Source: Hormiphora californensis (taxonomy: Eukaryota; Animalia; Ctenophora). From it: a DNA stretch of 64,000 nt. The stretch is taken from positions 5,890,001-5,954,000 of the forward strand of contig CM035356.1 in assembly GCA_020137815.1 (NCBI GenBank), given 5' to 3'. The first letter of the stretch is position 1. Every line of letters begins with the position of its first letter. Shown piece after piece: positions 1 to 64,000 of the stretch. The notes beneath the pieces are model-generated. The model searched no databases. It was given only the letters and a program-made list of their open reading frames with translations, and had not been told where the DNA came from. Made by a program: the position numbers and the translations under genes.

Positions 1-1285
1 TCCTCCATTCGTCGATAGATTTTCTCAACCTTCCCTTTAAAAGCTCCCATGAAGGTGTCAGCAAGCTTGCCTTTTTCAATGTTCCCAGGCATGACTTCAA
101 CATTTTCCCTCCCCAGAAGGTGGTTCGAAGTTTGCCAAGTAGCCCGAGGGTCATGCTGTTGTTCTTCGAGACGAGCCGCGAAGTAGTTTTCTCTTACTCC
201 AGTCAGGATTTTATCAGTTTCCTTCTCCTGTGCTTTACAGTCCTCAAAGAAGTTGAGTATCACAACGGGGTCTGTTTTGGTCCGAAGAATTGCCCTATAT
301 TTCCTTTCTTTCCTCCTTCTTTCCCTTCTTGCCCCTTGGCAGATCTCATAGTTCTGTGTGAACCATTTATTACTGCGAGTTTTAACCTTCCTAGTAACCA
401 CGGGCGCCCGACTATCCATAAACCCCGTCAACACCGAGATATACAGCTCAACACACTGGTCCAGGTCATCAGGTAACTCATCACAAAGATCCGACTGAAG
501 AATGTCTTCCCTAAGATCCTCAATGTCAAGGTCTTTCATTTTTCGGCTTGTAACTAGCTTAAACTCACTGTTAGAACTACAGCCAGCCACATTTAGAGAG
601 AAGCTCACTAGTGAATGATCAGGAAGAGCAGGTGCCCTATAAGTTTCCAGTCCGTCCAACGCCGTAAGGTCTGCATCCCTGGTTAGTACCAAATCAAGTG
701 TGCCACCCCTCACATGCGTAGGCCCGATAACATGTTGAGACCATCCCTCCGACAGAATAAGCGCTTTAAACTTCTGTGTGAATCGGTCAGTATCATCTTG
801 GAATCTAACATTAAAGTCGCCCATGACAACAGGAACGCCGCCCTTTGATACAAAGGAATTTAGATAGCTGCCAAACTCAGTTATGAAGTGAGTATAGTCA
901 TTCCCCGTGCGATAGATAACAGCAAGCCGGACTCCAACACTGCCCTTCACGAAGATCTCCAGACATTCAAAAGACTTAGTGGATGTTTTACACGTAGTAA
1001 ACTTGATCTTATTCCGAATAATGAACGCCACTCCACCCCCTCGCTTCCCTTTCCTCGGTGCATTAACCAGAGTGTGCCTCCAATCCCCCACCTCCGCCGC
1101 CAGTGAAGATTCATCTAAGTTAAGCCACGTTTCAGTAAGAGCTAGAATCCCAAGTCCATTTTCGACCATCATTCCCATGACCTGATTAACCTTGTTCCGC
1201 AAGGAGAAACAGTTGCCAAGTCCAACCTTAATGGTCCTGCACCCTACCTTCCCTAAATCAGTCACACGCCCATCTTCACCAACTA
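1..1285 (-). CDS. LINE ORF2 N-terminus, apurinic-like (APE) endonuclease domain (partial; not in ORF track because no stop falls inside the window)
   Basis: Manual translation gives IKVGLGNCFSLRNK, LALTETWL, RGGGVAF, VIYR, VMGDFN, PTHVRGGTLDLVL and SDH, the ordered APE motifs of non-LTR elements. Confidence 0.88.
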
Positions 1286-2401
1286 GTTTTTTGCATTCCT
1301 TAGTTTAAGAAGGAAAACAGGACAGTCAGGCGAACCGGCATTGTGTGAGTTGGCATTACCCTTCAGCTTAGGGTCACTGGCATTTTTACAGTTAGTGCAA
1401 CACACTCTCCCCCTGTTCTTACAATCCTTTGTCTTGTGGCCTTCCGCACAGAACATACATGTAGCCTGTGGTTGCTCGCATTCCCACGCTTTGTGGCCAA
1501 ATTTCTGGCAACGGTAGCACTGTGGAATATAGTACCGATCTTCCACCCTACAGGAAACATTTCTAACGAAAAGTTTTCCTCCCTTTACCAACAAGTCCCG
1601 AAGAGCGCAAGAAACTCTCAACCCCACGTTAACCCGTTCTCTCGCTCTCGATTTCCCAACATAGACAACCTCCAAAGTATGCCCCTGGTCTATTAGAGAG
1701 CTCACCTTAGAGTTCTTCATCCGAATCATCTCAACTATGGCACTATCCAAATCACTCCGGCCCATATCAACTGGAAATTCTTCCACGGGAAGTGGAAAGT
1801 CCTTAACCGTAACCTTAGGCAGTTTAATAGATGTCTTATAGGTCGCTGCCTCGGGAAGAACTGCCTTAAGCTGACTCTCAGCAGATTGAAGCATGTCCTG
1901 ATCAGGTAAGGCAATTATTACATCGCCATTGGCCTCCGCCCTCATGAAGGACACAGGTGTCTCCTTTAGAGCCTCAGAAGCTCGTTTTACAGCCGTATCT
2001 CCCGCATTACTAATCGTAATTTTTGCAGCAGGTTTCTTAAGAACTTCAGCAAATGACCCACCGAGATTCTCACCAAGACTCGCCCTTAACCCCACTCCAT
2101 CACCCCGACGTAAGTCCATTTCTCCAACAAGTTTTTCTACTATGAAATCAGCGTGCTTACCAAGCTCACTCACAACACATCGAGCAATCTCCTCTCCACT
2201 AGCCCCGGTCTGCCCAAACCCCTTAGCCTTCCCGCTATCCACCGAATCAAAACACGGGGGGCATAGCCAGCATAATCCCACGAGTTTACTTACTTCGACG
2301 GGTACGGGCGGATCAGCATCATCTCGCTCCTCTTTGCACATCAAACATACCATCTTCTCTGTAACTGCTATCTCTGCAGCCGCCTTTCTCGTTATTGTCA
2401 T
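1283..2401 (-). CDS. LINE ORF1, gag-like nucleic-acid-binding protein with C-terminal CCHC zinc knuckles
   Basis: 372 aa; knuckles CYRCQKFGHKAWEC, CMFCAEGHKTKDC, CTNC...SHNAGSPDC; N-terminal CLMC/CWLCPPC cluster. Confidence 0.9.
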   Translation of the reverse strand: MTITRKAAAEIAVTEKMVCLMCKEERDDADPPVPVEVSKLVGLCWLCPPCFDSVDSGKAKGFGQTGASGEEIARCVVSELGKHADFIVEKLVGEMDLRRGDGVGLRASLGENLGGSFAEVLKKPAAKITISNAGDTAVKRASEALKETPVSFMRAEANGDVIIALPDQDMLQSAESQLKAVLPEAATYKTSIKLPKVTVKDFPLPVEEFPVDMGRSDLDSAIVEMIRMKNSKVSSLIDQGHTLEVVYVGKSRARERVNVGLRVSCALRDLLVKGGKLFVRNVSCRVEDRYYIPQCYRCQKFGHKAWECEQPQATCMFCAEGHKTKDCKNRGRVCCTNCKNASDPKLKGNANSHNAGSPDCPVFLLKLRNAKN

Positions 2402-2436
2402 CGTCTAGATGGGGAATTGAGGTGCCTCACGACAAC

Positions 2437-2477
2437 CTCAAATTAATTTGTTTAAAGTAGTGTTGAAAAGTTTGAAA
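2437..2477 (-). other. Spliced-leader exon sequence, genomic copy 1 (41 nt)
   Basis: Minus strand TTTCAAACTTTTCAACACTACTTTAAACAAATTAATTTGAG, identical to the copies at 62060-62103 and 62272-62315; matches my recollection of the ctenophore SL. Confidence 0.85.
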
Positions 2478-4355: not shown

Positions 4356-16026
<11,671 letters not shown>

Positions 16027-42341: not shown

Positions 42342-42601
42342 ATTTACATTCTATATGGGAAGAGGGGACGCTTAGATCATATGGAGGCATAATGTATATA
42401 TTGGACATTCAAATCGAATGATTGTAATCAGTTACCGGGGATAATTAAAAAACATGCTTCTTTAAAAAGATTTAAAAATATACAAAATTTTAACCAATGA
42501 TAGTTTTGATAATTAGTTTATAAACTTTAAAAATTATAGAAAGTGTCTTTCCACTCAATTTCAAATTCTATCATCCTCTTGACTTCTAATAGTCTCGCGT
42601 T

Positions 42602-44312
42602 TCAAAGTACCCTCTTAGTTTGAGAAAATGGTTTCTTGGTTGAACAGGGCCAGTTTGAATCCTCGGTATTCAACCAGTGGTTCCTTGCCATTGTAGCCAA
42701 GGTCCCATCGTTTACCAGCGCCTCCTTTAGGTTTTCCGTCTCCACCGATGTCATGAAATTACACGCGTACTCAGGGCTGATACACCGGCTCAGAGCCTCC
42801 GATAGAAAGGCCATGGTTTCCTTATCGTAGAGAGAAAAATTGAAATTCTCCAAGATGTAATCTCGAAGTGGGAGTGAGTGACCGAGGTCCAGAAATGTGA
42901 TTAGATTTTGCACGAACGTTGAGTGTAGCTCAAATTGAACAGCTAGTGCCATCAACAAATCCATTTCGGGACGTTTTGAAGTGGCTGCTAACAATCGGGG
43001 AATCTTGAATTGAAAGGCGGTTTTGTTTTCTGGAACACTCGAGAAAATATGTGTTAAGAATTTATCATCGCCAAACTTAACCGAGCAATCCAAGGCCAGC
43101 AGGGCACATTCCCAGTAACCAGTGAATTCATCCAATGATTTAGGAAGTTGTTGTTTGAAGAAAACAAGACATCCCTCCTTGGCCCAGTCAACTTTAAACA
43201 CAGCCACCATCTTGAGAAAATCACCGAATACCTTGAACTCGGTGGAGTCAACCAGCTTGTCAAGCCTCCCTGTGTAACAAGCATCAACGAATATTCGGAC
43301 GGATTCAGGTTCAAAATCAGAAACATCATGATCTAGCTCCCCCACTTCCTCAATTAGATTCTTCAAGACAGGAGAGTTACGGGACAGAACATAGGAGTTC
43401 AGAGAGATGTTAGTGCTATCGCTCAGAACAAAGCTGTTGTTTCCATGGGCAGGGAGGGACAGATACTCTTTACCAAAGTCTATCCCGGCTGGTTTTTCAA
43501 TAGCCGGCGAATTCACGGAGACTGAGCTAGTTCCCGAATTTGTCGCTGCTGGTTCTTGTTCGCAGGGAGAGCTGTGCATGTGGTCTATAATGATAAAAGT
43601 TACCAAAACAGATGCTCCGCCTCCAACGCTATTTTTCGGTAGTTTGAAATCAATATACTCTCCCAGGAGTTTACATTGCTTCAGAGTTGGGTTCTGCCTC
43701 ACCAGTATTAACACAGATTCATCCAAATTCTCTATTATGCCTGTTTCTGGGCTATAGCCGTTCACTTTAAACTTCAAGTGTCGAGGTCCACGCCTTTTCA
43801 CTTCGACTTTCCAGCTTTTCCCGAATTTTTCAAGGAATATTTCATTTAAAGCAGGCACACCAGTGAGGTTTATGGTTCGGCTGAAAACAACCGTGCTTTT
43901 CTCGTCCTGCATAATCTGTTGAACATGTGCCTCGCCCAAGTTACATTGAGTGATGACAGCAGATACGGTTATCTTTATTTCATTTTCCCCGCTATCTTTC
44001 ATGAAGTTCTGCCATCCATGTCCATATCCAGATCCGTTGTATTTCTTGCCAGTATAGGTGTGATTTTTCACTCCTCTTGGTGATACCATGTTCCATCGAG
44101 AAGTCTGTACTGCAACTCCAATTCTTAGTAGCGTTAACAGGTTTAATATGAAGAGAAGCATCGATAAAGTCTTTACCACGAGTTTTACTAACACATACGC
44201 TCCAAAAGAATCCGTGAAACAGCCGCCAATCGCTGAACAATCGCTCATGATCTTCAAGCTGTCTGTTGCGTGGTATAGAGATTAAAAACTCCGCTGAAAA
44301 CTGTTTTGCCAT
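42602..44312 (-). CDS. Intronless MATH-like + BTB protein, copy 1 (one +1 frameshift near 44065)
   Basis: ORFs 43992-44312 and 42602-44257 together match the 570-aa copy 2; one extra base lies in or near a T run. Confidence 0.75.
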
Positions 44313-44604: not shown

Positions 44605-46522
44605 TTAAGACAAAAACATAATGTAGATTAGCGCAAGGAGCATGAAAAATAAACACACGGCGCTGACTTTCTTACAAATGCCTAACAAAACGTCCCTGCT
44701 CTCTGTAGAATAAATAACTTCTTTGATAAGCTTGTTATTCATTGCGAAGACACCTCTTTTAGCCTCGAAAATAGCCAATTTTTTCCCTGCCCGGGTGGAT
44801 GCCCGAAGGGCATCCACCCGGATGATCGTTTTAGCACGTGTGCTAAAAAGATCATAAAGGGTTTAGAAATCTCGGATTTGAAATAGTAACTCGAGCGTGG
44901 TCAAAATCGCGTGTGTCACGGTAGCAGCCTGACAACCGCGATGCTGACAATTTTGAAAAGTTCGTCCGCAAAGTTATTACAGTACGGATTTCGGTGGCGC
45001 GCGCTCAGAATTTGCTGCGCGCGCACACTCTCAATGCAGCGTATGTATACACACCTCGCGCGTTACAGCATAGCCGTAGCGCTTGAATGGATTTAACTTC
45101 TTGGTAAATCTGATTGAAACTAAAAGGCGTTGAAAGCTCAGCTCGTTAGTATGGTGACTGAGGGAACGTGAGAAGTTTCCCATGCATAGCTTGGTGTCAC
45201 ATAACATTGTAATTAGGCGTTGGCGGACGACGATCAGATCACATTGCACGGTATCGTCTGGTGTGACTGTGAGCGGCGCTTACCAGATCTCATCGTTTAT
45301 CAGTGATCGGTTCGAGTATTCGTTGGCAGGGAAACACAGCATTATGAAACATAATGCAATAATAATTCTTGTTGATCCTCAGTAAGGTCAAGGGCATCCA
45401 ATCGCTCATTGTAAAGCTTCTTTGTGGCTGCACTACTAAATCCTTCGGGCCAGTCGAGCGCCTGATATGACGTGAAGATTCGGATTTTTACATTTAACCT
45501 TTACAAACCTGGAGATATCAATAATCTTCATGGTCCACTGATTCATTATGCAAAGAACCTTGGACGAAGGTCCTTGGTAAATTACCCCTCCCTTCATTAC
45601 CGACATGGGACATACCTTCACTCCAAGGGGGAAGGTTTTCTTAAGTCCAAGTACTCTAACAATCATAGGCCGGAGGATGGCACCACCAGCCAGGATTGCC
45701 ATCTGCATTGTTTGAAGATATCCTATCAGCACCACCGGGTCGCCTGCCACGTCTGCCTAAAATCAGGGAAAATGGATCGCTCTTAAATATTCCGGGTTTT
45801 TTAAAGACTTTTCGATGTCTTACTGTCTCAGAAACACTGCAAATCTATCTCTCGACCATTTTAAAATATATTTCTAACCTGAATTTTCTGCTTGTATTCC
45901 TGCAACCCTGGTGATATTTCATCCTCCGGCAACTCTCCATCATAGAAATAAAGGACATCATCTTCGAATGCTGGAAAAGTAAAAGTGAATATACAGTCAG
46001 ACCTCGATTTACCGGGATGATAAACTTCCCCGATATACGAAATTGGCAGTATTTCAATTTTGACCCTGATATACCGGGCACCTGCACCCCGATATACGGT
46101 ATACCGGGCAAAACCCTTTACCCCGAGCATTTTCATTTAACAATCCATTCACGAAGTGGAGAATGATAGTTGAAAATGGTACCTTCGCTACGGAAAAGGG
46201 TGGGGAAGTACAACTGTTGTAATTCTGGACAGTCACCCCGTAGATCATCCATCATCTCCTCGATCATTTCAAAAACCTTCCAAAAACGGTACACAGCCAT
46301 ACGATAGACATTTCGATCTGAAATTGAGGGAGATCCAGAGAAAAGAGATGGAGAAGGAGAAATCGGGAGAAGTGAGAGAGTGAGAAACTGAAGTCTGGTA
46401 ATATATACCAAACTCAATGCATTTTTACCTGTCAGAGCAATGCTTAGTGCCGCGTTGAAGATTTTGTCTGACTTATCATGATCATCAGATAGTTTTTTCT
46501 TGAGTTCCTCAGAAAATCCCAT
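44605..46522 (-). pseudogene. Heme oxygenase-like copy 2, last exon interrupted by a ~590-bp insertion
   Basis: Near-identical to copy 1; the insertion between DQ and KLAIF introduces a stop after ~9 codons. Confidence 0.8.
44783..45371 (+). mobile_element. Non-autonomous Helentron/DINE-1-like element
   Basis: Inserted in a T run with no TSD (empty site visible in copy 1); subterminal inverted repeats TTTCCCTGCC / GGCAGGGAAA (45325-45334); 3' hairpin GCATTATG-aaa-CATAATGC; 5' palindrome CCGGGTGGATGCCC-gaa-GGGCATCCACCCGG. Confidence 0.75.
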
Positions 46523-46764
46523 ATTTACATTCTATATGGGAAGAGGGGACGCTTAGATCATATGGAGGCATATTGGACATTCAAATCGAATGATTGTAAT
46601 CAGTTACCGGGGATAATTAAAAAACATGCTTCTTTAAAAAGATTTAAAAATATACAAAATTTTAACCAATGATAGTTTTGATAATTAGTTTATAAATTTA
46701 AAAAATTATAATAAGTGTCTTTTCACTCAAATTCAAATTCTATCACCCTCTTTTCCATCGCGTT

Positions 46765-48477
46765 TCAAAGTACCCTCTTAGTTTGAGAAAATGGTTTCTT
46801 GGTTGAACAGGGCCAGTTTGAATCCTCGGTATTCAGCCAGTGGTTCCTTGCCATTGTAGCCAAGGTCCCATCTTTTACCAGCGCCTCCTTTAGGTTTTCC
46901 GTCTCCAACGATGTCATGAAATTACACGCGTACTCAGGGCTGATACACCGGCTCAGAGCCTCCGATAGAAAGGCCATGGTTTCCTTATCGTAGAGAGAAA
47001 AGTTGAAATTCTCCAAGATGTAATCTCGAAGTGGTAAAGTGCAGCCGAGGTCCAGAATTGAAATCAGATGTTGTACGAACGTTGAGTGTAGCTCAAATTG
47101 AACAGCTAGTGCCATCAGCAAATCCATTTCGGGACGTTTTGAAGTGACTGCTAACAATCGGGGAATCTTGAATTGAAAGGCGGTTTTGTTTTCTGGAACA
47201 CTCGAGAAAATATGTGTTAAGAATTTATCATCGCCAAACTTAACCGAGCAATCTAAGGCCAGCAGGGCACATTCCCAGTAACCAGTGAATTCATCCAATG
47301 ATTTAGGAAGTTGTTGTTTGAAGAAAACAAGACATCCCTCCTTGGCCCAGTCAACTTTAAACACAGCCACCATCTTGAGAAAATCACCGAATACCTTGAA
47401 CTCGGTGGAGTCAACCAGCTTGTCAAGCCTCCCTGTGTAACAAGCATCAACGAATATTCGGACGGATTCAGGTTCAAAATCAGAAACATCATGATCTAGC
47501 TCCCCAACTTCCTCAATTAGATTCTTCAGGACAGGAGAGTTACGGGACAGAACATAGGAGTTCAGAGAGATGTTAGTGCTATCGCTCAGAACAAAGCTGT
47601 TGTTTCCATGGGCAGGGAGGGACAGATACTCTTTACCAAAGTCTATCCCGGCTGGTTTTTCAATGGCCGGCGAATTCACGGAGGCTAGGTTAGTTCCCGA
47701 ATTTGTCGCTGCTGGTTCTCGTTCGCAGGGAGAGCTGTGCATGTGGTCTATAATGATAAAAGTGACCAAAACAGATGCTCCGCCTCCAACGCTATTTTTC
47801 GGTAGTTTGAAATCAATATACTCTCCCAGGAGTTTACATTGCTTCAGAGTTGGGTTCTGTCTCACCAGTATTAACACAGATTCATCCAAATTCTCTATCA
47901 TGCCTGTTTCTGGGCTATAGCCGTTCACTTTAAACTTCAAGTGTCGAGGTCCACGCCTTTTCACTTCGACTATCCATCTTCTCCCGAATTTTTCAAGGAA
48001 TATTTCATTTAAAGCAGGCACACCAGTGAGGTTTATGGTTTGGCTGAAAACAACCGTGCTTTTCTCGTCCTGCACGATCTGTTGAACAGGTACCTCGCCC
48101 AAGTTACATTGAGTGATGTCAGCAGATACGGTTATCTTTATTTCATTTTCCCCGCTATCCTTCATAAAGTTCTCCCAACCGCATCCAGATCCAGATCCGT
48201 CGTATTTGTGGCCAGTATAGGTGAATTTCGTGCTCTTCTTGGTGATTCCATGTTCCAGCGAGAAGTCTATATTGCAACTCCAATTCTTATTAGCGTTAAC
48301 AGGTTTAATTATATGAAGAAGAGCTTTGAGAAATTCGTTACCACGAGTTTTACTAACAGATACGCCCCAAAAGAATCCGTGAAACAGCCGCCAATCGCTG
48401 AAAAATCGCTCATGATCTTGAAGCTGTCTGTTGCGTGGTATAGAGATTAAAAACTCAGCGGAAAACCTTTTTGCCAT
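46765..48477 (-). CDS. Intronless MATH-like + BTB protein, copy 2 (intact, 570 aa)
   Basis: N-terminal MATH-like pattern (FHGFFWGVSV...LLHI...NWSC...GCGWENF); BTB pattern (SFVLSDSTNISLNSYVLSRNSPVLKNLI...VSDFEPESVRIFVDACYTG). Confidence 0.78.
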   Translation of the reverse strand: MAKRFSAEFLISIPRNRQLQDHERFFSDWRLFHGFFWGVSVSKTRGNEFLKALLHIIKPVNANKNWSCNIDFSLEHGITKKSTKFTYTGHKYDGSGSGCGWENFMKDSGENEIKITVSADITQCNLGEVPVQQIVQDEKSTVVFSQTINLTGVPALNEIFLEKFGRRWIVEVKRRGPRHLKFKVNGYSPETGMIENLDESVLILVRQNPTLKQCKLLGEYIDFKLPKNSVGGGASVLVTFIIIDHMHSSPCEREPAATNSGTNLASVNSPAIEKPAGIDFGKEYLSLPAHGNNSFVLSDSTNISLNSYVLSRNSPVLKNLIEEVGELDHDVSDFEPESVRIFVDACYTGRLDKLVDSTEFKVFGDFLKMVAVFKVDWAKEGCLVFFKQQLPKSLDEFTGYWECALLALDCSVKFGDDKFLTHIFSSVPENKTAFQFKIPRLLAVTSKRPEMDLLMALAVQFELHSTFVQHLISILDLGCTLPLRDYILENFNFSLYDKETMAFLSEALSRCISPEYACNFMTSLETENLKEALVKDGTLATMARNHWLNTEDSNWPCSTKKPFSQTKRVL

Positions 48478-49069
48478 GTTCGTTCCTTTGGGGGAGTTAA
48501 TAATAAGTTAGTAATACTAACTTAGTATTTATGTTATTATATAGTGTGTAGACAGGTAAAATAAACAAGGGTAAGAAAATATAAACTCTGAATTAATCGA
48601 GTCCTGGTGGGTGGAACGGAATACTTCTTCATAAATACTTCTCCTTGTATTGTGCTCCATCATTCCATCGTGGCTTACATAGTGGCTTACATAGTTAGCT
48701 GTGTCTAATTCTTTGTCGTTCACAACTCACGAGTTATGGGATGAAATTCAAGCGGACGATAACTCAAACTCGAATATTTCGAACTGGAACAGGGAACTCA
48801 CTTTTGAAAATTATTAGGCGATTTATAGTCTGGGTCTGGTGATTTCAGATTTTCTGTCCGCCCCACTATTCGGGTTGGCGTGATCTAAGTAACAATAACA
48901 ATAACAATAACAATAACAATAACATTTAACATTTATAAATCGCTTTTGAGCGAAAAGTGTTTATCTTGATCGACTTATACTAAAGCGTCCTTTCGATCAA
49001 AACTCGCTTTCTAAAGCGAGTTAATAGTTAATAAGTTAATTAAAATAGTTAACAATAAACTGTCACATA

Positions 49070-51103: not shown

Positions 51104-51466
51104 CTTTTTCTTTTTATTATGTATTGCCTCTTTTTGATTTTTTGATTTTTTTTAAATTTAAAAAAAATTTTTTTAAATTCTTTTTTCTTTGCTTTTTTGA
51201 TTTTTTAACCCGGGCTCTTTTTATACCGATCAGTTCTGGGGATCCGTCACATAAAATAAACCAATCAACTCCCAAATCTCCACTTCCTAGAACAAACAAA
51301 ATAATAAGTATTCAACTGACCACCAGACACACAAACAACCTCCTCTATATCTCCTGGCTCCTACTAACTCTAGAAATTCAACGGATTCCTATTGTCACAA
51401 TGGACATTTCAGCTCCTTACACGCCAAAAGCCCTACAGAACAAAAACGTCTTTAGATCCACTTTAA

Positions 51467-52856
51467 GGGTACGCTAACCAAAAATTTTTTTCGAGTGCAG
51501 GGAAATCTCTCACCGTAGGGTTGTAGGCCATGCCAAGGAGACCTCAAATATGCAATTTGAGCTCTCAAGTCGAATTCATATTTTTGCTACAGCTGCTTGA
51601 AAAATGAACTGAAAATAAGTTTTTGGCATCTTTAAAATACATTTGTAAAGATAGGAGCATGAAAATTTGGGGATTTGAAGAGGACATGAAGGTGAATAAC
51701 CACAAAAATTTTTTTTGCAATCCGAGCTGATTTCCGGTCCTGAGATGGATTTCTTTTTTTCCACTTTAACGCCCTATTTGGCAAAGTTCCGAAAACATGT
51801 GAAAGCTGTAAATTGGTGAAAAGTTGCGTCTAACGATTATCTAAGTGGCCATAAATTTTGGGCGTGTCCTTATTTGAGATAAGCTGTACAGAGTTTTTTT
51901 TTGTGAAAGCCGTCATTTCAGAAATAAATAAATTCCCTGTATCTCAAAAACGGCTGATCGTAGAGACCTGAGACTATGCTTAAACGATTCAGAAGGTCCG
52001 ATTTTGGGGGGGTCTTCTGAGAGACATTTTGCTCCTACTTCAACCGTTTTTGCTGTAATTGCGAAAAACAAATTCTATGAAAAGGGCAAAAGCTAAACTC
52101 CAATATCCTGTAATTAGGGAATTTTGGCTAAGAAAGGACCGAAACTATGGAAAAATGTGTAACAATCTAATTCCTTCACTATTTGGTCCATATGGGTCCC
52201 TATAATCACCAAAAACAAAATCACAAAAAATCCACGATGGCGAAGATGGGTTTTTGTTTTTCGCAATTACAGCAAAAACGGTTGAAGTAGGAGCAAAATG
52301 TCTCTCAGAAGACCCCCCCAAAATCGGACCTTCTGAATCGTTTTAGCATAGTCTCAGGTCTCTACGATCAGCCGTTTTTGAGATACAGGGAATTTATTTA
52401 TTTCTGAAACGACGGCTTTCACAAAAAAAACTCTGTACAGCTTATCTCAAATAAGGACACGCCCAAAATTTATGGCCACTTAGATAATCGTTAGACGCAA
52501 CTTTTCACCAATTTACAGCTTTCACATGTTTTCGGAACTTTGCCAAATAGGGCGTTAAAGTGGAAAAAAAGAAATCCATCTCAGGACCGGAAATCAGCTC
52601 GGATTGCAAAAAAATTTTTTGTGGTTATTCACCTTCATATCCTCTTCAAATCCCCAAATTTTCATGCTCCTATTTTTAAAAAAAAATTTTGAGATGCCAA
52701 AAACGTATTTACAGGACATTTTTTAAACAGCTGTAGCAAAAATATGAATTCGACTTAAGGGCTAAAATTGCATATTTGAGGTCTCCTTGGTATGGCCTAC
52801 AACCCTACGGTGAGAGATTTCCCTGCACTCGAAAAAAAATTTTGGTTAGCGTACCC
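51467..52856. mobile_element. Foldback DNA element with ~600-bp TIRs and TTAA TSD (Kolobok-like)
   Basis: TTAA|GGGTACGCTAACC...GGTTAGCGTACCC|TTAA; removal restores LINE ORF2 ...ETLKRFKVDLKTFLF. Confidence 0.8.
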
Positions 52857-53006
52857 TTAAAACGTTTTAGAGTCTCTGATTCACGCAATTCTCTTGGCAG
52901 TTTGTTCCATAGTCGAGGTCCCGATACGCTGAATGCACGATCAGTTGTCTTGTAATTTGGATGGGGGATTTCAAGCAAAAGTTTATCTCCATCTGCACGC
53001 AGTCCT

Positions 53007-53908: not shown

Positions 53909-54790
53909 TTGCCCATTGTAGTCTTACAACAACCCCCCCCCCCACCCGTATCTATGCCCCCCTCTCACTCTTTGTCTCTCCATGTCGGGGTAAAGAATAC
54001 GGAGGTTGGAATAGTGGTAGAGCGCTGGTGATAAACATCAAGGGAAATCCCGCTGAATAACATGTAGAATCAGGCGATAAAGATCCGTAGAATTGTAGCT
54101 GTGTAGAGAATCAACGGGGTACGTAGGTAGAAAGGCTTTGGTAATCATGGGGGTCCCAGCAGTAGATCCCAAAACACCAACAAACAACAGCCACAGGAAC
54201 ACGCAACAAACAACCAATAACATGCACGTGCAGTATCCCCCCTCCAATACCCCTCCCAACCCACCTCCCAGGGCAACCCCCACCATTTGCACGTGTGGAT
54301 AGGTCACCATCCTCATCACGACGTTCATTTGTACTTTATAATAAGGACTAGAAAGCCCATTGAGATCCCACAACACCCCCCCCCCCCCCCGTCTCTATGT
54401 CTCTCCCCCTCTTACTCTTTGTCTCTCCATGTCGGGGTAAAGAATACGGAGGTTGGTAGAGTGGTAGAGCGCTGGTGATAAACATCAAGTAAAATTCCGC
54501 TGAATAACATGTAGAATCAGGTGATAAAGATCCGTAGAATTGTAGCTGTGTGTAGAGAATCAACGGGGTACGTAGGTAGAAAGGCTTTGGCAATCATGGC
54601 AGCTCCAGTAGTAGATCCCAAAACACCACAGGAACAACACAGGAACACGAAACAAACAAACAATAGAATGCACGTGCAGTATCCCCCTCCAATACCCCTC
54701 CCAAGCCACCTCCCTTGGCAACCCCCCACCATTTGCACGTGATGATAGGTCATACTCATCACGCCACGCATTTGTACTTTATAATAAGGA
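53909..54790 (-). mobile_element. Tandem dimer of type-B non-autonomous Helitron
   Basis: Reverse-complement homolog of 49370-49867; A|TC start, internal CTAG|TC junction at 54347/54348; removal between A and T restores LINE frame GRLLNKRKTKSIGLRAD. Confidence 0.8.
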
Positions 54791-56599
54791 TTAAGCAGGC
54801 GACCACTAAGATAGTCGGGTGCAAGTCCGTTTAAGCATTTGAATACCAGAACACAGGTTTTATACTCAATTCGCTCAGAGACCGGGAGGAAATGAAGCTC
54901 CTTCCGTAGCTGGGTCGTACCTCGCCAACGCCTCTGGCCATAGATGAAACGTGATGCGGCATTTTGGATCTTTTGAAGCTCTTGTCGGTTCTTCTTTGTC
55001 ATTCCGGTCATCAGGGAGTTACAGTAATCCATTTTGGAGTGGATCAAGCCGCAGACTAGTAATGTTCTTAGTCTTCGCGACAACTTCCCGGCGATTCTCC
55101 ATAAATTAACCAGAGTGGACTTACATGCATTGACCACCTTCAACACATGTTCATCCATGGAGAGTTTAGAGTCAAAGTACACCCCCAGATTCCTTGCCGA
55201 GTTCGTGACCACAGTGGGTGTGCCCTCTTTGAACAGCTGTACTGAGTCTACAGAGGTACTTCCTCTGGGAGATAGGATCATAACTTCAGTCTTTGTAGGG
55301 TTCAGTTGGAGAAAATTAGTCGTGAGCCAGGCCTGTATATCCGAAACGCAGGCCTGTAACTTCTGTTCAATATCAGAGAAGTCATCCGCTGAATATGCAG
55401 CGTACACCTGGGTATCATCTGCGTAAAAATGAATACCTACTCCGTGTTTCTCAGCAATTAGTTCCAGCTCCTTCGTGTAGCATATGAACAGAATAGGACC
55501 CAGAATCTATCCCTGAGGCACTCCAATAGTCAAATCAGTAAAAGCCGATTTCAACTCACCCACCATCACAGAAGCACCCCTACCCGTAAGGTAACTCCGG
55601 AACCAGTCAAGAGAGGTATCACTGACACCATATAGCTGCTCCAATCGTTTGAGGAGTGTCGAGTGGTTCACCGTATCGAAAGCCGCACTCAAGTCTAATA
55701 ACAGGAGCACCACCTTCGATCTTTCGTCCGTCAGTGTTAGCAAATCGTCAAATATGCGTAGGGTGGCAGTTTCACAGCTTTTATGCTGTCTATATGCAGA
55801 TTGATGTCTCGATAGAAGGTTGTTATCCTCTAGATGCTTGACGAACTGATCAGCTGCACACTTTTCAATGAGCTTGCCAAGGAATGGTAGGTTGCTGACA
55901 GGTCTGTAGTTACCCAGATCATCGGCGTCAAGATCTGACTTCTTAATCAAAGGACGAATAAGAGCAGTTTTCAAAGCAGTAGGGAATTTACCAGATAATA
56001 GGCTGTCGTTCACTATCTTAGATAGGACCGGGAGCCTCCCGGCGGGAGGAGTTCTCCAAATAATCGTCTGACAAAAGAAGTGGGTATAGGATCCAGCTCG
56101 CAATGTTTCGTGCCCATCTCCATAATGGTCGATCTTAAGACTGTATCAGACACCGGTTGAAATTTGAATGATGGCACTCGCGGTGCATTTGGAGATTGAG
56201 TTAGGTAGTACACCTACTTACGTTTCCGTTCTCCTGTTCTTGTTGAGATTCGGGATGAGAGTGTCTTCAAGACTTTGTGAAATTCATTAGCTATCCCACC
56301 CGCTGTATTCATGACCAATGGAGAAAATGTCCCTCCTTCAACTTCTCGAACCCGTTTACCGTATGATTGCAACGTTTTTAAAGCATTTTTTATTGGCCTA
56401 TGCTACAGGCCCGTAAGAAGAAGCCTAGCCATGGAAAACGTGCGCACTTGGGGTCTGCAGCGCATGCCAACATTTTTAAAAATGAAGGAAACAAAATTGG
56501 AAATCCCAAACCTGCAGGTAAAGTTTTTGGGGGGGGGGGGTAAAAGTTAAAAATTATACATAAAAATGAGTTTACATGTTCTGTAGTAATAAATAAGTT

Positions 56600-57162
56600 A
56601 AAAATTATCGGTGTTAAACCTCGTCATGTATAATAAATTATAATCAGTTTCTTCTGTTACTCTCGTTACTTTCGTCCCACGAAAACCTCGGCGGCTAACA
56701 ATAATAGTTTTTAGGAGACTGAATGAGAGGCGTTGACGAATGTAACGGATTGAATCACTATAGGACTGTTTAGTTTTCAGAGAAATCAATCTCGCAACCT
56801 GGGCATAAAACTGATAGGGATGCGTTGCTCGGTGCCAGCGAGTTAAAGACCCGGATGTCACACAATGACTTCACATTGGGGGACCAGACTCCTGTCGCAC
56901 CAACATCCAGTCGGGCATCGTTCGCTGTGATTGCCGACTTGTATTGGAATACTTCCCCTGTGAGTGGTAACAGAGGGGGCTCTATCTGGATATTCTTGCA
57001 TCTCGTCATTTTAAGGAAGTTGGCAGTTAGATCACGAATATAATTATGTCGTAGATAGACGTATCCCCCCAGTGGACAGGACAGACAATGCTCTATATCG
57101 TTAATATGTCCACATGCACAGTTCATAGGTATTCCTTTCATGGGTAGAAGATACCTCAGGGC
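56600..57162 (-). mobile_element. CRE-like non-LTR retrotransposon 3' fragment (CCHC + restriction-like endonuclease)
   Basis: LRYLLP...CACG...IEHCLSCPLGG...RHNYIRD...EPPLLPL...DARLDVGATGVW...DIRVFN; frameshifted downstream. Confidence 0.75.
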
Positions 57163-57167
57163 TAACC

Positions 57168-57577
57168 TGAATTTTCTGCTTGTATTCCTGCAACCCTGGT
57201 GATACTTCATCCTCCGGCAACTCTCCATCATAGAAATAAAGGACATCATCTTCGAATGCTGGAAAAGTAAAAGTGAATACAGTCAGACCTCGATTTACCG
57301 GGATGAAAAACTTCCCCCGATATAAGAAATTGGCAGTATCTGACCCTGATACACCCCGATATACCGGGCAAAACCCTTTCCCCCGAGCATTTTCATTTAA
57401 CAATTCATTCACGAAGTGGAGAATGATAGTTGAAAATGGTACCTTCGCTACGGAAAAGGGTGGGGAAGTACAACTGTTGTAATTCTGGACAGTCACCCCG
57501 TAGATCATCCATCATCTCCTCGATCATTTCAAAAACCTTCCAAAAACGGTACACAGCCATACGATAGACATTTCGAT
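57168..57577 (-). pseudogene. Heme oxygenase-like copy 3 remnant (exons 2-3 only)
   Basis: Matches copies 1 and 2; exon 1 is deleted at a junction near 57615 and the 3' exons are replaced by the CRE-like fragment. Confidence 0.8.
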
Positions 57578-57720
57578 CTGAAATTGAGGGAGATCCAGAG
57601 AAAAGAGATGGAGAAATGACAGTTTTGATAATTAGTTTATAAATTTTAAAAATTATAGAAAATGTCTTTCCACTCAATTTCAAATTCTATCATCCTCTTG
57701 ACTTCTAATAGTCTCGCGTT

Positions 57721-59432
57721 TCAAAGTACCCTCTTAGTTTGAGAAAATGGTTTCTTGGTTGAACAGGGCCAGTTTGAATCCTCGGCATTCAACCAGTGGT
57801 TCCTTGCCATTGTAGCCAAGGTCCCATCGTTTACCAGCGCTTCCTTTAGGTTTTCTGTTTTCACTGATTTCATGAAATTACACGCATACTCAGGGCCGAT
57901 GCACTGACTCAGAGCCTCCGATAGAAAGGCCATGGTTTCCTTATCGTAGAGAGAAAAGTTGAAATTCTCCAAGATGTAATCTCGAAGTGGGAGTGAGTGA
58001 CCGAGGTCCAGAAATGTGATTAGATTTTGCACGAACGTAGAGTGTAGCTCAAATTGAACAGCCAGTGCCATTAACAAATCCATTTCGGGACGTTTTGAAG
58101 TGACTGCTAACAATCGGGATATCTTGAATTGAAAGGCGGTTTTGTTTTCTGGAACACTCGAGAAAATTATATGTGTTAAGAACTTATCATCGCCAAACTT
58201 AACCGAGCAATCCAAGGCCAGCAGGGCACATTCCCAGTAACCAGTGAATTCATCCAATGATTTAGGAAGTTGTTGTTTGAAGAAAACAAGACATCCCTCC
58301 TTGGCCCAGTCAACTTTAAACACAGCCACCATCTTGAGAAAATCACCGAATACCTTGAACTCGGTGGAGTCAACCAGCTTGTCAAGCCTCCCTGTGTAAC
58401 AAGCATCAACGAATATTCGGACGGATTCAGGTTCAAAATCAGAAACATCATGATCTAGCTCCCCCACTTCCTCAATTAGATTCTTCAAGACAGGAGAGTT
58501 ACGGGACAGAACATAGGAGTTCAGAGAGATGTTAGTGCTATCGCTCAGAACAAAGCTGTTGTTTCCATGGGCAGGGAGGGACAGATACTCTTTACCAAAG
58601 TCTATCCCGGCTGGTTTTTCAATGGCCGGCGAATTCACGGAGGCTAGGTTAGTTCCCGAATTTGTCGCTGCTGGTTCTCGTTCGCAGGGAGAGCTGTGAA
58701 TGTGGTCTATAATGATAAAAGTTACCAAAACAGATGCTTCGCCTCCAACGCTATTTTTCGGTAGTTTGAAATCAATATACTCTCCCAGGAGTTTACATTG
58801 CTTCAGAGTTGGGTTCTGTCTCACCAGTATTAACACAGATTCATCCAAATTCTCTATCATGCCTGTTTCTGGGCTATAACCGTTCACTTTAAACTTCAAG
58901 TGTCGAGGTCCACGCCTTTTCACTTCGACTTTCCAGCTTTTCCCGAATTTTTCAAGGAATATTTCATTTAAAGCAGGCACACCAGTGAGGTTTATGGTTC
59001 GGCTGAAAACAACCGTGCTTTTCTCGTCCTGCACAATCTGTTGAACAGGTACCTCGCCCAAGTTACATTGAGTGATGTCAGCAGATACGGTTATCTTTAT
59101 TTCATTTTCCCCGCTATCCTTCATGAAGTTCTCCCAACCGCATCCATATCCAGATCCGTCGTATTTGTGGCCATTATAGGTGTATTGTTTACTCCTCTTG
59201 GTGATACCATGTTCCAGCGAAAAGTCTGTACTGCAACTCCAATTCTTATTAGCGTTAACAGGTCTAATTTGAAGACAAGCTTTGAGAAAGTCTTTACCAC
59301 GAGTTTTAATAACACTTACGCCCCAAATGAATCCGTGAAACAGCCGCCAATCGCTGGCAAATTGCTCATGATCTTGAAGCTGTCTGTTGCGTGGTATAGA
59401 GATTAAAAACTCAGCGGAAAACTGTTTGCCAT
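57721..59432 (-). CDS. Intronless MATH-like + BTB protein, copy 3 (1-nt deletion just after the ATG)
   Basis: The frame is open back to QFSAEFLISIPRN; ATGGCAAACAG versus ATGGCAAAACAG in copy 1. Confidence 0.75.
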
Positions 59433-59643
59433 GTTCGTTCCTTTAGGGGAGTTAATGATAAGTTAGTAATACTAATTTAGTATCTATGTTATTATATAGT
59501 GTGTAGAAAGGTAAACTTAATAATATAAACAAGGGTAAGAAAATATAAACTTTGAATTAATCGAGTCCTCGAGGGTGGAACTGAAGTGTTTTCTCTCGCT
59601 TCTTACACTGAATTACAGCTGCCACATTACAATTTACAGAATA

Positions 59644-60379: not shown

Positions 60380-60852
60380 TATAAAATGAGTCTATTGCCC
60401 CACTTGATATAGCTGCTCGTCCCTGTTGCCCTCGCCCCTCAATCTACCCCGATGCCCCCTGATGGAAACAGTTATTGATCGCACCATGGCGAAAGATAGT
60501 CTGAGTCAAAGATAACGGATGCATTGGTCGTAGGTGTATCCCGTTTTCTTAGCTTTCTTATCGGCTAGCTGTTTCAGTGTCTTTTTGAATTCCCGACCGA
60601 GACCCCCCGTCGTGGACATTACCAGAGGTGTAAATGACGATTTTTCCACTTCAATGACCCGATGAAGGTAGCCAGTCTTTTTCTCCCTCTCATGTTTTTC
60701 ATACACTTTAGAGATTGCCTGGTTAGAGTTGGATGCCACCCTAGGATTAAATACCCTCACATCAAAATAGGTGTTATCCATGCTAGACCAGAAATCACGT
60801 GTACTGATATCTAGGCGAGCTCCATCCGCCGTAATAGTTCCCTCTGGGAGAC
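60380..60852 (-). mobile_element. Second, divergent CRE-like 3' fragment (restriction-like endonuclease)
   Basis: GARLDISTRDFW...YFDVRVFNP...YEKHEREKKTGY...IEVEKSSFTPLVMSTTGGLG. Confidence 0.75.
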
Positions 60853-61022
60853 TCATCATCATCATCATCAATTAACATTTAATATACCGCTTTATAGCAT
60901 ATTGGTAAGATATCACTTAAAAAAGAAAAAACTTAACGGATACCTTCCTGCTTTCAAAAGCGGTTTTACTCTATTTGATCAATAAATTAGAGTCCATGAG
61001 CTAGTAGTGTTTATACAAATGT

Positions 61023-62015
61023 TCAAGTGTCCCTTGGTGCTTCTAACACCCTCTTTCCACGGATTATGAAGTGGGTTCCAGGGGACTGCTTTACCTTCTC
61101 CTTCAGTTCAACAACAAGCTTTTTCCGTTCATTCCGTTCTTCTACTGTTCTATCAGGAGATATAAAGACTTTGCCAAACTTGTCGTTCCCTTTCAGCAGG
61201 GATTTCTTCGACAGGATTGAAAGTTGAGCTTCTCTGCTCCTCAGCACAACTTTCACAGGTCTTGCCGATGAGGACTGCTTTCCCAAGCGCTCGGCAGATT
61301 GCACTTTCGGAGCCTCTTCAAGCTCACCAAAAAGAGACTTGATTTGAGTTTCAAGCTTATCACCATTTACATTGTCTTTCAACTCTTCCAATCCATGGAT
61401 GATGATGTTACACCCACGGTCCTCCGATGCTGCCACGATTGCCGATTGAATCTTCTTTGGAGCCAGGGCCGAGGCACACTCCTTCTCCAAAACGGCTGCA
61501 AAGCTCTTCATTTCCTGTTGTGCTGTTGACTGCACAGCTGTTATCTCAACCTCCCTCTTCTCAAGTAATTGCCTCTGGATTTTTAGGAGCTCCTCTTGTG
61601 CAGCTACTAGATTTCTTTGGGTTTTTATGAGCTCTGTACTGTGTATTTTGAGCTCTTTCTCCAGCTGGTTTATCCTCAAGGTTTCGCAACCAACTGCTAA
61701 CAACTCTTCAGTAACTGGGAAGGTCTGTTCCATAAGAATACGGCATGCATCCTCCACAAGGTCTAAAAGCACTGGCTTGGTCAGTGCATTGAGTTTGGTC
61801 CTGGAGGGGACCTTCAGATCATTCCAAACTTCCGCTGTCTGTGGTCCGTACTGCTGCACTCTGTTCGGGTTTATTTCACCGAACCCACCGGTTAGGGTTA
61901 ATACCTCGCTTACCCACTCCACGGTTTGTTCTTGACAGTATCGGACGTGTTCTTCTTCCACATCTGTTTCCCGCAGGTAGGTCCGTGTATCAAGTTCATC
62001 ATCAGAGCTTTCCAT
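61023..62015 (-). CDS. LINE ORF1p-like protein (coiled coil + RRM-like + C-terminal domain), 330 aa
   Basis: Heptad region followed by DRGCNIIIHGLEE...AERLGK...RPVKVVL...VFISPDRTVEERNERKKL...FIIRG. Confidence 0.8.
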   Translation of the reverse strand: MESSDDELDTRTYLRETDVEEEHVRYCQEQTVEWVSEVLTLTGGFGEINPNRVQQYGPQTAEVWNDLKVPSRTKLNALTKPVLLDLVEDACRILMEQTFPVTEELLAVGCETLRINQLEKELKIHSTELIKTQRNLVAAQEELLKIQRQLLEKREVEITAVQSTAQQEMKSFAAVLEKECASALAPKKIQSAIVAASEDRGCNIIIHGLEELKDNVNGDKLETQIKSLFGELEEAPKVQSAERLGKQSSSARPVKVVLRSREAQLSILSKKSLLKGNDKFGKVFISPDRTVEERNERKKLVVELKEKVKQSPGTHFIIRGKRVLEAPRDT

Positions 62016-62059
62016 CTTCTTGCTGCCCTCTTGGGCTCTTACATAGACATTTGCTGAAA

Positions 62060-62103
62060 CTCAAATTAATTTGTTTAAAGTAGTGTTGAAAAGTTTGAAA
62101 CTC
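62060..62103 (-). other. Spliced-leader exon sequence, genomic copy 2 (44 nt)
   Basis: GAGTTTCAAACTTTTCAACACTACTTTAAACAAATTAATTTGAG on the minus strand. Confidence 0.85.
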
Positions 62104-62271
62104 ATTCCTCGTACATTTAGCAAATGGGGTTTTTAAAAAATGAAGGAAAGAAAATCTGTTTATGAGGCCCCTCGGAAATGTTCAAGTCATGCACAATCAA
62201 GTCACGCCCACCAATCACAGCTCAGAACGCGCGAAGCAGTCCGCGCGTTCTGAGCTGTGATTGGTGGGCGT

Positions 62272-62315
62272 GAGTTTCAAACTTTTCAACACTACTTTAA
62301 ACAAATTAATTTGAG
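62272..62315 (+). other. Spliced-leader exon sequence, genomic copy 3 (44 nt)
   Basis: Identical to copy 2. Confidence 0.85.
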
Positions 62316-62344
62316 CAGGTAGATATGGTGATGTGATAGCCCCT

Positions 62345-63328
62345 ATGGGCAGACCGTACGATATGACAGTTATTCCAGTACGTCAAGAGGAGCTGACTCA
62401 GGCTGATTTGGATTGGTATGCGAGCCGGATCCTGACCATGGTCAAGTATGCAGGGATTCCTTCACCGGATTTAACCAGAAAGTTAGGGAGTAGCCCTGAG
62501 GATATCAGGGAAATACCGACATCTTTCAATATCCACTCATCCCACACGAAACGTGATTTGGCATCTGTGTTAGAAGATGTATTTATGTCGACCTTGCCAC
62601 TTCTTAAGTACTTCCAACATCGTTTCAACGTCGAGAAGTCGCCTGAGTTGGAATTAAAGGAAGAAAGAGATGAACTGTTGAGAAAGAGTTTGGAGTTGCA
62701 GAAAAAAGAGGAGATATTGAGAGTTGAGATGGATGACCTGTTGAGAAAGACTATTAGGTTACAAGAGCAGGTCATTGAGCTTCAGGACACTCAACTACAT
62801 CGAGTAACCGAAACAGTACAGAAAGATCTGCGCTCTTTCTCAACTGTCTTGACGCAGAATTGTAGGTCTGCTCTTGCACCGAAAAATATCAAGAAAGATG
62901 AAGGGAAAGCTCATGGCAAAAAAGTTGATTCGAGTCCAGATCCAGACAGATCCAAAAATCTGATGGTGTTTGGTCTACCGGAAGTTGAGGCAGAATCTGA
63001 ATCTGTGTTGAAATGCGAGATAGAGAATGTTTTGGCTGAGCTTGATGAGAAACCTATTGTTGTAGCTAAAAGGGTGGGTTTGAAACGGGAAGGAAGGGAG
63101 AGACCCGTGATCGTGAAGCTACAGAGTAGAGAAATGCTGCTGAGCCTTCTCCAGAAGGCTAGGCAGTTGAAACAGTCCGAATCGTACTGCGGTGTATACT
63201 TGTCAAGAGATATGTCACTCGCAGAGAGAACGGAGAGGAGGGAACTCCACCTTACATTGAAGGAGTTAAGGGAATCGAATCCCGAAAGACAATTTCGGAT
63301 ACGGAAAGGAGCGATAAACTTTTCATAG
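62345..63328 (+). CDS. LINE ORF1p-like protein, distant paralog of 61023-62015
   Basis: Coiled coil, TVQKDLRSFSTVL..NCRSALAPKNI, DRSKNLMVFGLPE...KRVG...RPVIVKL...VYLSRDMSLAERTERR...FRIRKG; first in-frame ATG at 62345. Confidence 0.8.
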   Translation: MGRPYDMTVIPVRQEELTQADLDWYASRILTMVKYAGIPSPDLTRKLGSSPEDIREIPTSFNIHSSHTKRDLASVLEDVFMSTLPLLKYFQHRFNVEKSPELELKEERDELLRKSLELQKKEEILRVEMDDLLRKTIRLQEQVIELQDTQLHRVTETVQKDLRSFSTVLTQNCRSALAPKNIKKDEGKAHGKKVDSSPDPDRSKNLMVFGLPEVEAESESVLKCEIENVLAELDEKPIVVAKRVGLKREGRERPVIVKLQSREMLLSLLQKARQLKQSESYCGVYLSRDMSLAERTERRELHLTLKELRESNPERQFRIRKGAINFS

Positions 63329-63599
63329 ACTATCTTTATAAACTGGACTCTTAAATGGACTCATATCTTTGATCAACCGTTTTTTGCCCACAAAAAGGGG
63401 CTGATAATTTGATACATCAAACTGTGTAAATTATTATATAGATTTAATAAATAAATAATAATGGTGGGCGTGACTTGATTGTGCATGACTTGAACATTTC
63501 CGAGGGGCCTCATGTTTTCGTGTCGGCCAGGAAAAATATCGCGCGCGAGAGCAAATTTTATGCGTCGCAAATAATGTAACGCGCGAACTGCAATGTCCT

Positions 63600-63750: not shown

Positions 63751-63754
63751 ATAT

Positions 63755-63983
63755 AGTCTGATTTTAAATAACTGTCGTTTTTACCGCACTCGATTTTGCT
63801 ATATTATGACAATATCTCCAGTTCCTGATAAGATAGAGACTTGAAATTTGGAGGTTAGGAAGAACTTAGCATGTTCTTCGCAACCCCCGAGTTTCAAGTC
63901 TTTATCTCATCAGGAACCGGAGTTATTGTAATAATAGAGCAAAATCGAGTGCGGTAAAAACGATAGTTATTTAAAATCAGACT
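63755..63983. mobile_element. Hairpin MITE with ~100-bp arms
   Basis: agtctgattttaaataact...agttatttaaaatcagact with imperfect inner arms. Confidence 0.7.
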
Positions 63984-64000
63984 TTATCCAGCTGAGAGAG

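Follow-up and report, generated by a model that had tools for sequence, protein, structure and literature searches.

How does a stretch of DNA that encodes a single LINE-type protein come to begin with the spliced leader (SL) of its host? The question is raised by E1, an insert in a 64-kb stretch of DNA from the ctenophore Hormiphora californensis that was analysed as a whole (the window, to which all coordinates refer). There is little doubt in our view that E1 is a copy of a family of SL-headed, ORF1-only retroposons. We also consider it probable that E1 is a multicopy, non-autonomous retroposon of 1.2 kb, copied in trans by a LINE from an RNA that was likely trans-spliced.

Architecture and boundaries of E1

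E1 consists, in this order, of the SL, a 29-nt 5' UTR, a 327-codon open reading frame (ORF), a 116-nt 3' UTR and a tail of short repeats. All parts named in the initial annotation are present where it had placed them; together with the features added here, the insert and its target are laid out as follows:

62162..62273, left arm of a 152-bp palindromic MITE, the target of E1 (reconstructed empty site)
62262..63473 (+), insert E1 with its target duplications, about 1.2 kb
62262..62273 (+), left target-site duplication, at most 12 bp, the last GA of which also fits the SL start
62273..62315 (+), SL exon, 43 nt, the same as the exon of the L022 array and the published Hormiphora leader
62325..62336 (+), upstream ORF (uORF) of three codons, M-V-M-stop, its stop 2 nt before the hairpin
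62339..62350 (+), GCCC-N4-GGGC inverted repeat, a predicted hairpin, shared with four related elements
62345..63328 (+), intact ORF of 327 aa (ORF list; predicted coiled coil-RRM-CTD fold)
63329..63444 (+), 3' UTR, its last 80 nt 81% identical to the relative L032
63445..63461 (+), tail (TAA/TAAA)n, TAATAAATAAATAATAA, at which other copies branch
63462..63473 (+), right target-site duplication, the 12-bp junction repeat
63474..63513, right arm of the MITE holding E1 (reconstructed empty site)

The target-site duplication of 12 bp that had been proposed corresponds to TGGTGGGCGTGA, the longest exact repeat at the junctions (62262-62273 and 63462-63473). When E1 is taken out together with one copy of this repeat, the 152-bp palindrome is restored (62162-62273 joined to 63474-63513), and it differs from its own reverse complement by six mismatches, all in the central loop. 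The insert thus does split a MITE. The duplicated target is MITE sequence and not an SL-RNA gene, as first suggested, and the context of an SL gene (CCATCAGC before, GTAAG after) is missing at both ends of E1. The first two letters (GA) of the 44-mer that heads E1 fall within the left duplication, and this microhomology leaves the 5' junction uncertain by 1-2 nt. Very many contigs of the DNA runs map to the MITE holding E1.

Within the insert, the ATG at 62345 sits in the conserved hairpin, and the working start of the ORF, judged against its relatives, may be in the 62363 region (309+ aa). The 3' UTR contains a predicted GCCC/GGGGC stem-loop near 63386-63401, within the part that matches L032, and an AATAAA is present inside the tail. 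That the insert lacks an ORF2 was borne out: the ORF is followed by the 116-nt UTR and then the tail, and other copies stop at the same tail.

The leader and its genomic copies

The 44-mer had been taken for the SL found at mRNA 5' ends. This holds, since an identical 44-mer is described as the trans-spliced leader of Hormiphora californensis, present on 56% of Iso-Seq reads (PMC8527503), and since it occurs on 23 host-type mRNA contigs. The 44-mer had also been counted three times in the window; there are indeed three SL copies but they are not equal, as 45 nt are shared between 62271-62315(+) and 62060-62104(-), and the third copy, 2437-2477(-), is exact over 41 nt. At the genome level, 718 leader copies were counted in Hormiphora and 491 leader matches in Mnemiopsis, in a passage that does not state their nature (PMC8527503).

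A scan of metagenome contigs with an exact 29-nt SL pattern gave 34 loci, which, classed from their translations as read and not by homology search, comprise 23 host-type mRNAs, one SL-RNA array (L022) and ten retroelement-type loci. The SL lies at the contig start in all 23 host-type mRNAs. The array (L022:1-1945) repeats a 778-bp unit in tandem, alternating between SL-RNA and 5S rRNA genes; the SL exon begins with AGTTTC, is preceded by C and is followed by GTAAG. Because the base before AGTTTC is a C, the gene-encoded exon is probably 43 nt long and probably does not include the G at the start of the 44-mer. This G can be assigned to the target in both E1 and E2, a second element described below. 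The SL pattern had no match in viral contigs.

All SL copies outside the array for which genomic flank was available (9/9; six metagenome loci with at least 38 nt before the SL, and the three window copies) head retroelements. In total, 13 SL-headed retroelements were collected, three by their position in the window and ten by the exact 29-nt scan, which is biased toward an intact SL; in all of them the SL is present without mismatch over 35-43 nt, and the 5' end lies at the SL start or within 8 nt of it (13/13). These 13 retroelements and the 23 host mRNAs differ in how T-rich the 5 nt directly after the SL are (p 3e-5, in a post hoc comparison of related sequences).

Two irregularities were seen at the SL in the DNA contigs. 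Over 62060-62315, many contigs (depth 18-160) carry part of an SL in reverse, fused to an SL in forward orientation, and one partial tandem SL also occurs; the reversed/forward joins could be due to fold-back at the self-similar SL start, to head-to-head insertions or to library chimeras. In a single contig of run X7, with a depth of 88 out of 5147, the SL ends in an insertion of GA, which could reflect a shifted acceptor or slippage.

Other SL-headed elements in the window

The window holds a second SL+ORF1-only element, E2, and a LINE with two ORFs headed by the third SL copy:

60851..62105 (-), E2 (SL copy, ORF, tail and duplication)
62060-62102 (-), SL of E2 (exact repeat)
62025-62036 (-), uORF and hairpin of E2 (motif comparison)
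61023-62015 (-), ORF of E2, 330 aa, 29% identical to the E1 ORF (E 3e-27)
1..2477 (-), two-ORF LINE with its SL at 2437-2477 (SL repeat and domain search)
1286-2401 (-), ORF1 of this LINE, with CCHC-like motifs; its ORF2, with an APE endonuclease domain, runs off the window

E2 lies head to head with E1, 170 bp apart. Its tail is (GAT)n, and it is flanked by 6 bp of duplicated target, ATGAGT (62100-62105 and 60851-60856); deletion of E2 rejoins the reading frame of another retroelement fragment. Many E2 relatives are found on contigs of 1.1-1.6 kb, and the E1 and E2 ORFs fall on separate, well-supported tree branches, each including Pleurobrachia bachei proteins. The two-ORF LINE has SL-headed relatives at six metagenome loci (L003, L007, L008, L015, L021 and L034); two of these, L008 and L015, have an (ATT)n end. 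L020, classed by reading, represents another SL-headed type with two ORFs. The SL head is therefore widespread among these retroelements across the genome rather than peculiar to E1, because it is common to a second ORF1-only family and to ORF2-bearing LINEs.

The surroundings are dense in repeats, with long palindromes or nested inverted repeats of the MITE type at 27128-27526, 51462-52861, 63751-63987 and 7183-7581. Reverse transcriptase fragments (RVT_1, Pfam) lie at 54520-56145. The fragments at 60509-60871 and 56773-57282 (-), in which Pfam gave no hit, read as what we take to be the restriction-like-endonuclease ends of CRE-type elements. A unit of at least 2 kb is present in three copies, 91-99% identical, at 41889-44281, 46136-48507 and 57104-59442 (-); each has an open frame of 560-580 codons with a stretch that looks BTB-like by eye, and the unit may be either a tandem gene family or a mobile unit.

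E1 copies are dispersed and end at the same tail

We then asked whether E1 is a single retrocopy. In DNA run X1, two E1 body contigs span 62308-63451 at depths of 289 and 250 and stop in the tail, while two others, at depths of 25.2 and 23.7, run past the tail into unrelated flanks that differ from each other. The ratio of depths suggests, roughly, 10-12 near-identical E1 copies in the X1 sample. A third flank past the tail appears in X2, from the same sample as X1, and the window MITE is the fourth; all E1 junctions seen depart at the same tail. The junction between tail and MITE found in the window is not among the contig pieces listed for the DNA runs, which is uninformative. The E1 family also occurs in a second sample (X7) and in a second organism (X13), in which a contig shows 29 differences from E1 in 443 nt.

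A more distant copy, L032, with about 65% protein identity to E1, consists of SL, ORF and (TAA)n tail with flank on both sides and without visible target duplication. Among the matches listed, 73 of the 82 contigs with full-length relatives are no longer than 1.81 kb (median 1.31 kb). Contigs of at least 3.5 kb make up 1/82 for these relatives and 3/9 for the ORF1s of two-ORF LINEs (Fisher p 0.003), a comparison of listed cluster members of at least 300 aa that is supporting only, as metagenome contigs are generally short, the nine control contigs were partly found via long loci, the L031 cluster was excluded from the control and 4/9 control proteins are not in the collection. The copies thus do not run on into an ORF2, as judged from the tail ends, L032 and contig sizes. 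A count of copies with distinct target duplications had been suggested as a check: four different 3' flanks were found, and duplications were paired for E1 (12-bp) and E2 (6-bp). Altogether, the proposed family of SL-headed ORF1-only elements is multicopy, dispersed and free of ORF2.

In RNA run X5, the E1 body is represented by contigs of 765 and 196 nt that cover 62339-63269 only. Neighbouring high-copy repeats are not covered in X5; we do not take this pattern as proof of transcription, since DNA run X8 has the same gaps. No SL-joined RNA of E1 was seen among the X5 contigs, which cannot show starts.

The ORF is under purifying selection

Between E1 and L032 the dN/dS ratio is 0.22 (bootstrap 0.14-0.33), at a dS of 1.1 and with clearly diverged 5' UTRs; between E2 and the first 242 aligned codons of L016 it is 0.23 (0.15-0.34). 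Among the 27 rows listed for E1 and the X13 contig, 15 differences are synonymous and 12 are not (expected synonymous fraction 0.22, p 1e-4). The window E1 and the majority copy differ by six synonymous and four other changes (expected synonymous fraction 0.22, p 0.01), not counting three sites beyond the ORF and two that stem from a related subfamily. The E2 ORF shows 14 synonymous and eight other differences among the 22 rows listed, from a table with 90 further rows. The ORF is therefore maintained by purifying selection although no ORF2 is attached to it. With several copies and a dN/dS of about 0.2 for both E1 and E2, a single-copy processed pseudogene is not borne out. Frameshifted relatives do exist (L016, P0005).

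The E1 protein

The ORF had been called ORF1p-like, and this stands as regards fold, since two structural aligners place LINE-1 ORF1p first, but not as regards profiles, since the search against Pfam models gave no such match. Pfam gave no ORF1p family for the E1 and E2 ORFs or for 33 aligned relatives, only coiled-coil noise, and a profile search of the PDB with the E1 ORF likewise returned coiled-coil noise only. In an AlphaFold2 model built from the 33 relatives (mean pLDDT 78; pTM 0.38, which is low), a long helix is accompanied by an RRM-like domain of four strands and by a small domain at the C-terminus. With this model as query, Foldseek lists nothing but human LINE-1 ORF1p in its top 11 rows (best E 9e-7). 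In a second aligner L1 ORF1p ranks first to third (Z 10.5, 9.7 and 9.4), and the next unrelated RRM has a Z of 8.4; the best alignment to L1 ORF1p has an rmsd of 2.6 over 87 residues. The E1 ORF is thus predicted to be an L1-type (type II) ORF1p with coiled coil, RRM and CTD. This assignment rests on the predicted fold, Pfam not recognising the ORF, and the purifying selection on the ORF supports it. Type II ORF1 is described in CR1 and L2 subgroups as well (PMC4120745), so the fold does not fix the parent clade of E1.

The E1 ORF belongs to a large family without a Pfam model: its profile collects 17,586 cluster representatives at E <= 0.001 and 399 at 1e-30. Homologues with 73-77% identity are present in the P. 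bachei proteome. No fused homologue of 680-2000 aa was found among the 7992 scored, which is weak evidence, and none of the 213 pattern matches of the E1-type profile in viral contigs was confirmed. One P. bachei gene model, P0032, joins a family ORF to another protein, presumably a Par6-type PB1/PDZ protein; the fusion is probably an annotation artefact of an insertion.

A conserved 5' cassette

Behind the SL, five elements (E1, E2, L032, L016 and L031) share a cassette of uORF and hairpin. In all five, the ATG nearest to the SL starts a uORF of 1-4 codons, and exactly 2 nt separate the stop of this uORF from the GCCC-N4/5-GGGC that follows it; 8-13 nt beyond this motif comes the next ATG. 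Across the five elements the stem is invariant and the loop variable. E1 and E2 account for both occurrences of the motif in the window, and it is present in 0/23 host-type mRNAs. We infer from this arrangement that the cassette may act as a brake on translation of ORF1.

The cassette is also of interest with regard to the donor of the enzymes. The ORF1 of L031 is of another type, with CCHC knuckles. Because a cluster mate of L031 lies on a 5.7-kb contig, L031 is probably an autonomous LINE with the E1-type head, and hence a candidate relative rather than a proven donor. L031:1-80 and L020:394-430 (SL orientation; protein P0309) both have the uORF head of the ORF1-only family, the hairpin being in L031 only, and the ORF1s of both are unrelated to the E1 ORF; the two are candidates for the parent or the enzyme donor. 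The 3' UTR of E1 compared with L007, L008, L015 and the window LINEs gave opposite-strand tail matches only, and no ORF2-bearing LINE with an E1-type ORF1 or the E1 3' UTR was found among the loci compared.

How the leader may be maintained

The template that was reverse-transcribed into E1 ran from SL base 1-2 into the tail. The endonuclease and reverse transcriptase of a LINE would be supplied in trans to this RNA. First, ORF1p would bind its own RNA and help to capture the ORF2p of an APE-type LINE, as proposed for HAL1 and HeT-A. Second, the uORF and hairpin would tune ORF1 translation. Third, promoters of the host or within the element would drive transcription of genomic E1 copies, and trans-splicing would then join a new SL at the AG with which the DNA-encoded SL closes, giving the same 5' end in each cycle; SL-headed genomic copies would thereby be source elements themselves. 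We give this third step about an even chance. Renewal of the SL is suggested because no SL mismatch is seen in 13 elements with diverged UTRs and synonymous sites, a set biased by the ten that came from the exact SL scan, and splicing at the terminal AG of the DNA-encoded SL would be the simplest way to hold the junction constant. In favour of such splicing, E1 contigs pass the SL/body junction without a branch. Against it, a YAG lies no more than 7 nt after the SL in E1, E2, L032, L016 and L020, where its use as an alternative acceptor would shorten the element, and in 7/23 host-type mRNAs; GAG, the end of the SL, is a weaker splice acceptor than YAG; and SL-joined RNA of E1 was not among the X5 contigs.

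Alternatively, the RNA could come from SL-less master loci with a promoter, an outron and an acceptor, be trans-spliced once, and give rise to SL-headed copies that are dead ends; one special case would be an ORF1 gene domesticated by the host, together with its processed retrocopies. This would be the ordinary route for trans-spliced genes, it would explain the always-current SL equally well, and it would suit the frameshifts in some relatives. Against it, the E1 body contigs of X1 and X2 start inside the SL and cross the SL/body junction unbranched. No loose end of an SL-less 5' junction at 62316 appeared in four DNA runs, which is weak evidence as rare variants are lost from contigs, these runs yielded only 2-3 of the roughly 10 3' junctions expected, and the 3' end is uncovered in X7. 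Moreover, the synonymous-rich differences between the window and majority copies fit replicating lineages better than dead ends, and dozens of divergent subfamilies are unlike one host gene. We therefore regard master loci as unlikely.

Could the SL instead be inherited as DNA, an internal promoter in the SL, or in the cassette 20-35 nt behind it, starting transcription at SL base 1 without new trans-splicing? In Ascaris, the SL exon serves as an internal promoter. The 5' ends of all 13 retroelements within 8 nt of the SL start would agree with such a promoter, as would GCCC-N4/5-GGGC, which is palindromic as DNA and whose spacing from the SL hardly varies among five elements. However, an inherited SL should drift like the adjoining UTR, yet it has no mismatch; the palindrome is tied to the uORF stop in 5/5 elements, which suggests a function at the level of RNA or translation; and seven two-ORF SL-headed LINEs, as well as L020, have no palindrome. 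An SL transmitted in this manner is thus quite improbable.

That E1-type elements are by-products of a full LINE, shortened at the 3' end by early polyadenylation or by internal priming after ORF1, is scarcely credible in spite of the AATAAA within the tail and a distant relative (P0016) on an 8-kb contig, since every junction seen leaves at the same tail, E1, E2 and L032 each have their own 3' UTR and repeat tail, the end of the 3' UTR is kept between E1 and L032, and an E1-type ORF1 precedes an ORF2 in no locus examined.

Comparison with known systems

E1 and E2 carry the marks of retrotransposition: the tails, the 12-bp and 6-bp duplications and the four different E1 3' flanks. The nearest counterparts are HAL1 (half-L1, mammals), HeT-A and Ag-Sponge, described as bipartite non-autonomous LINEs in which ORF1 is present; for the HAL1/HeT-A class it is proposed that ORF2p acts in trans and that ORF1p aids its own RNA (PMC5753468, PMC5786205). 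As in these elements, so far as those accounts describe them, E1 is non-autonomous and encodes ORF1p only, with neither endonuclease nor reverse transcriptase, and its ORF1p shares the predicted coiled coil-RRM-CTD fold with that of human L1. Unlike them, E1 has the host SL as its 5' end and a short tandem repeat as its tail, and at least two lineages, those of E1 and E2 with only 29% identity, coexist in one window.

The SL head itself recalls the SL-tagged retrogenes of dinoflagellates, for which re-trans-splicing of the copies is described (PMC12014239). In both cases the DNA copy starts with the SL, which marks a reverse-transcribed, processed RNA. The cargo of E1, however, is a selfish ORF1 and not a host gene, because of its LINE ORF1p fold and its many divergent subfamilies. 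Nor does E1 resemble the dinoflagellate copies, as described there, in tandem relics: no relic SL was found within 50 nt behind the SL in the 13 retroelements (the best score overall, p 0.07, belongs to a host mRNA), and splicing at the last AG of the SL would leave none.

In flatworms, 597 partial-leader loci lie beside LTR and LINE elements, and integration of SL-bearing transcripts was proposed (PMC12582326); in Hydra, the SL is on about 30% of Iso-Seq reads from transposable elements (PMC12220107). In these cases, as for E1, retroelement RNAs are suggested to use the SL trans-splicing of the host. The relevant passages concern animals other than ctenophores, and they describe neither full-length SL-headed elements with target duplications, nor an ORF1-only family, nor a 5' cassette.

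E1 must also be distinguished from LINEs for which the SL is the target. NeSL and CRE/SLACS/CZAR insert into SL genes, and by these general features they resemble E1 in that SL sequence adjoins a non-LTR element. Unlike in those elements, the SL of E1 is inside the insert, the duplicated target is a MITE, and no SL intron is found at either end. In the open full texts searched, neither ctenophore LINEs headed by an SL nor any ORF1-only family with such a head turned up; the Hormiphora supplements might describe genomic SL copies. ORF1-only LINEs and SL-tagged retrocopies are thus known separately, and their combination appears to be new in the texts searched.

Significance

We tentatively propose that ctenophore LINEs broadly delegate their 5' end to host trans-splicing. 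The final AG of the SL would serve as their own acceptor, and read-through transcripts would be trimmed and re-capped into full-length elements without promoter, ribozyme or terminal repeat; on this device, old and diverse ORF1-only parasites of 1.2 kb with a uORF-hairpin translation switch may have radiated. If this is true, such elements would account for many of the 718 Hormiphora and 491 Mnemiopsis genomic SL copies. Non-LTR elements must regain their 5' end and their transcription in each cycle, for which internal promoters, ribozymes and head-to-tail arrays are the known means. Splicing of the host SL in trans onto a leader encoded in the DNA would be a further one. As E1-type elements are short, intact and young, and as the Hormiphora genome and Iso-Seq reads are public, the proposal is testable. 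The fusion of such elements into gene models, as in P0032, calls for caution in annotation. Finally, living ORF1-only elements under purifying selection provide material for asking why half-LINEs retain ORF1p.
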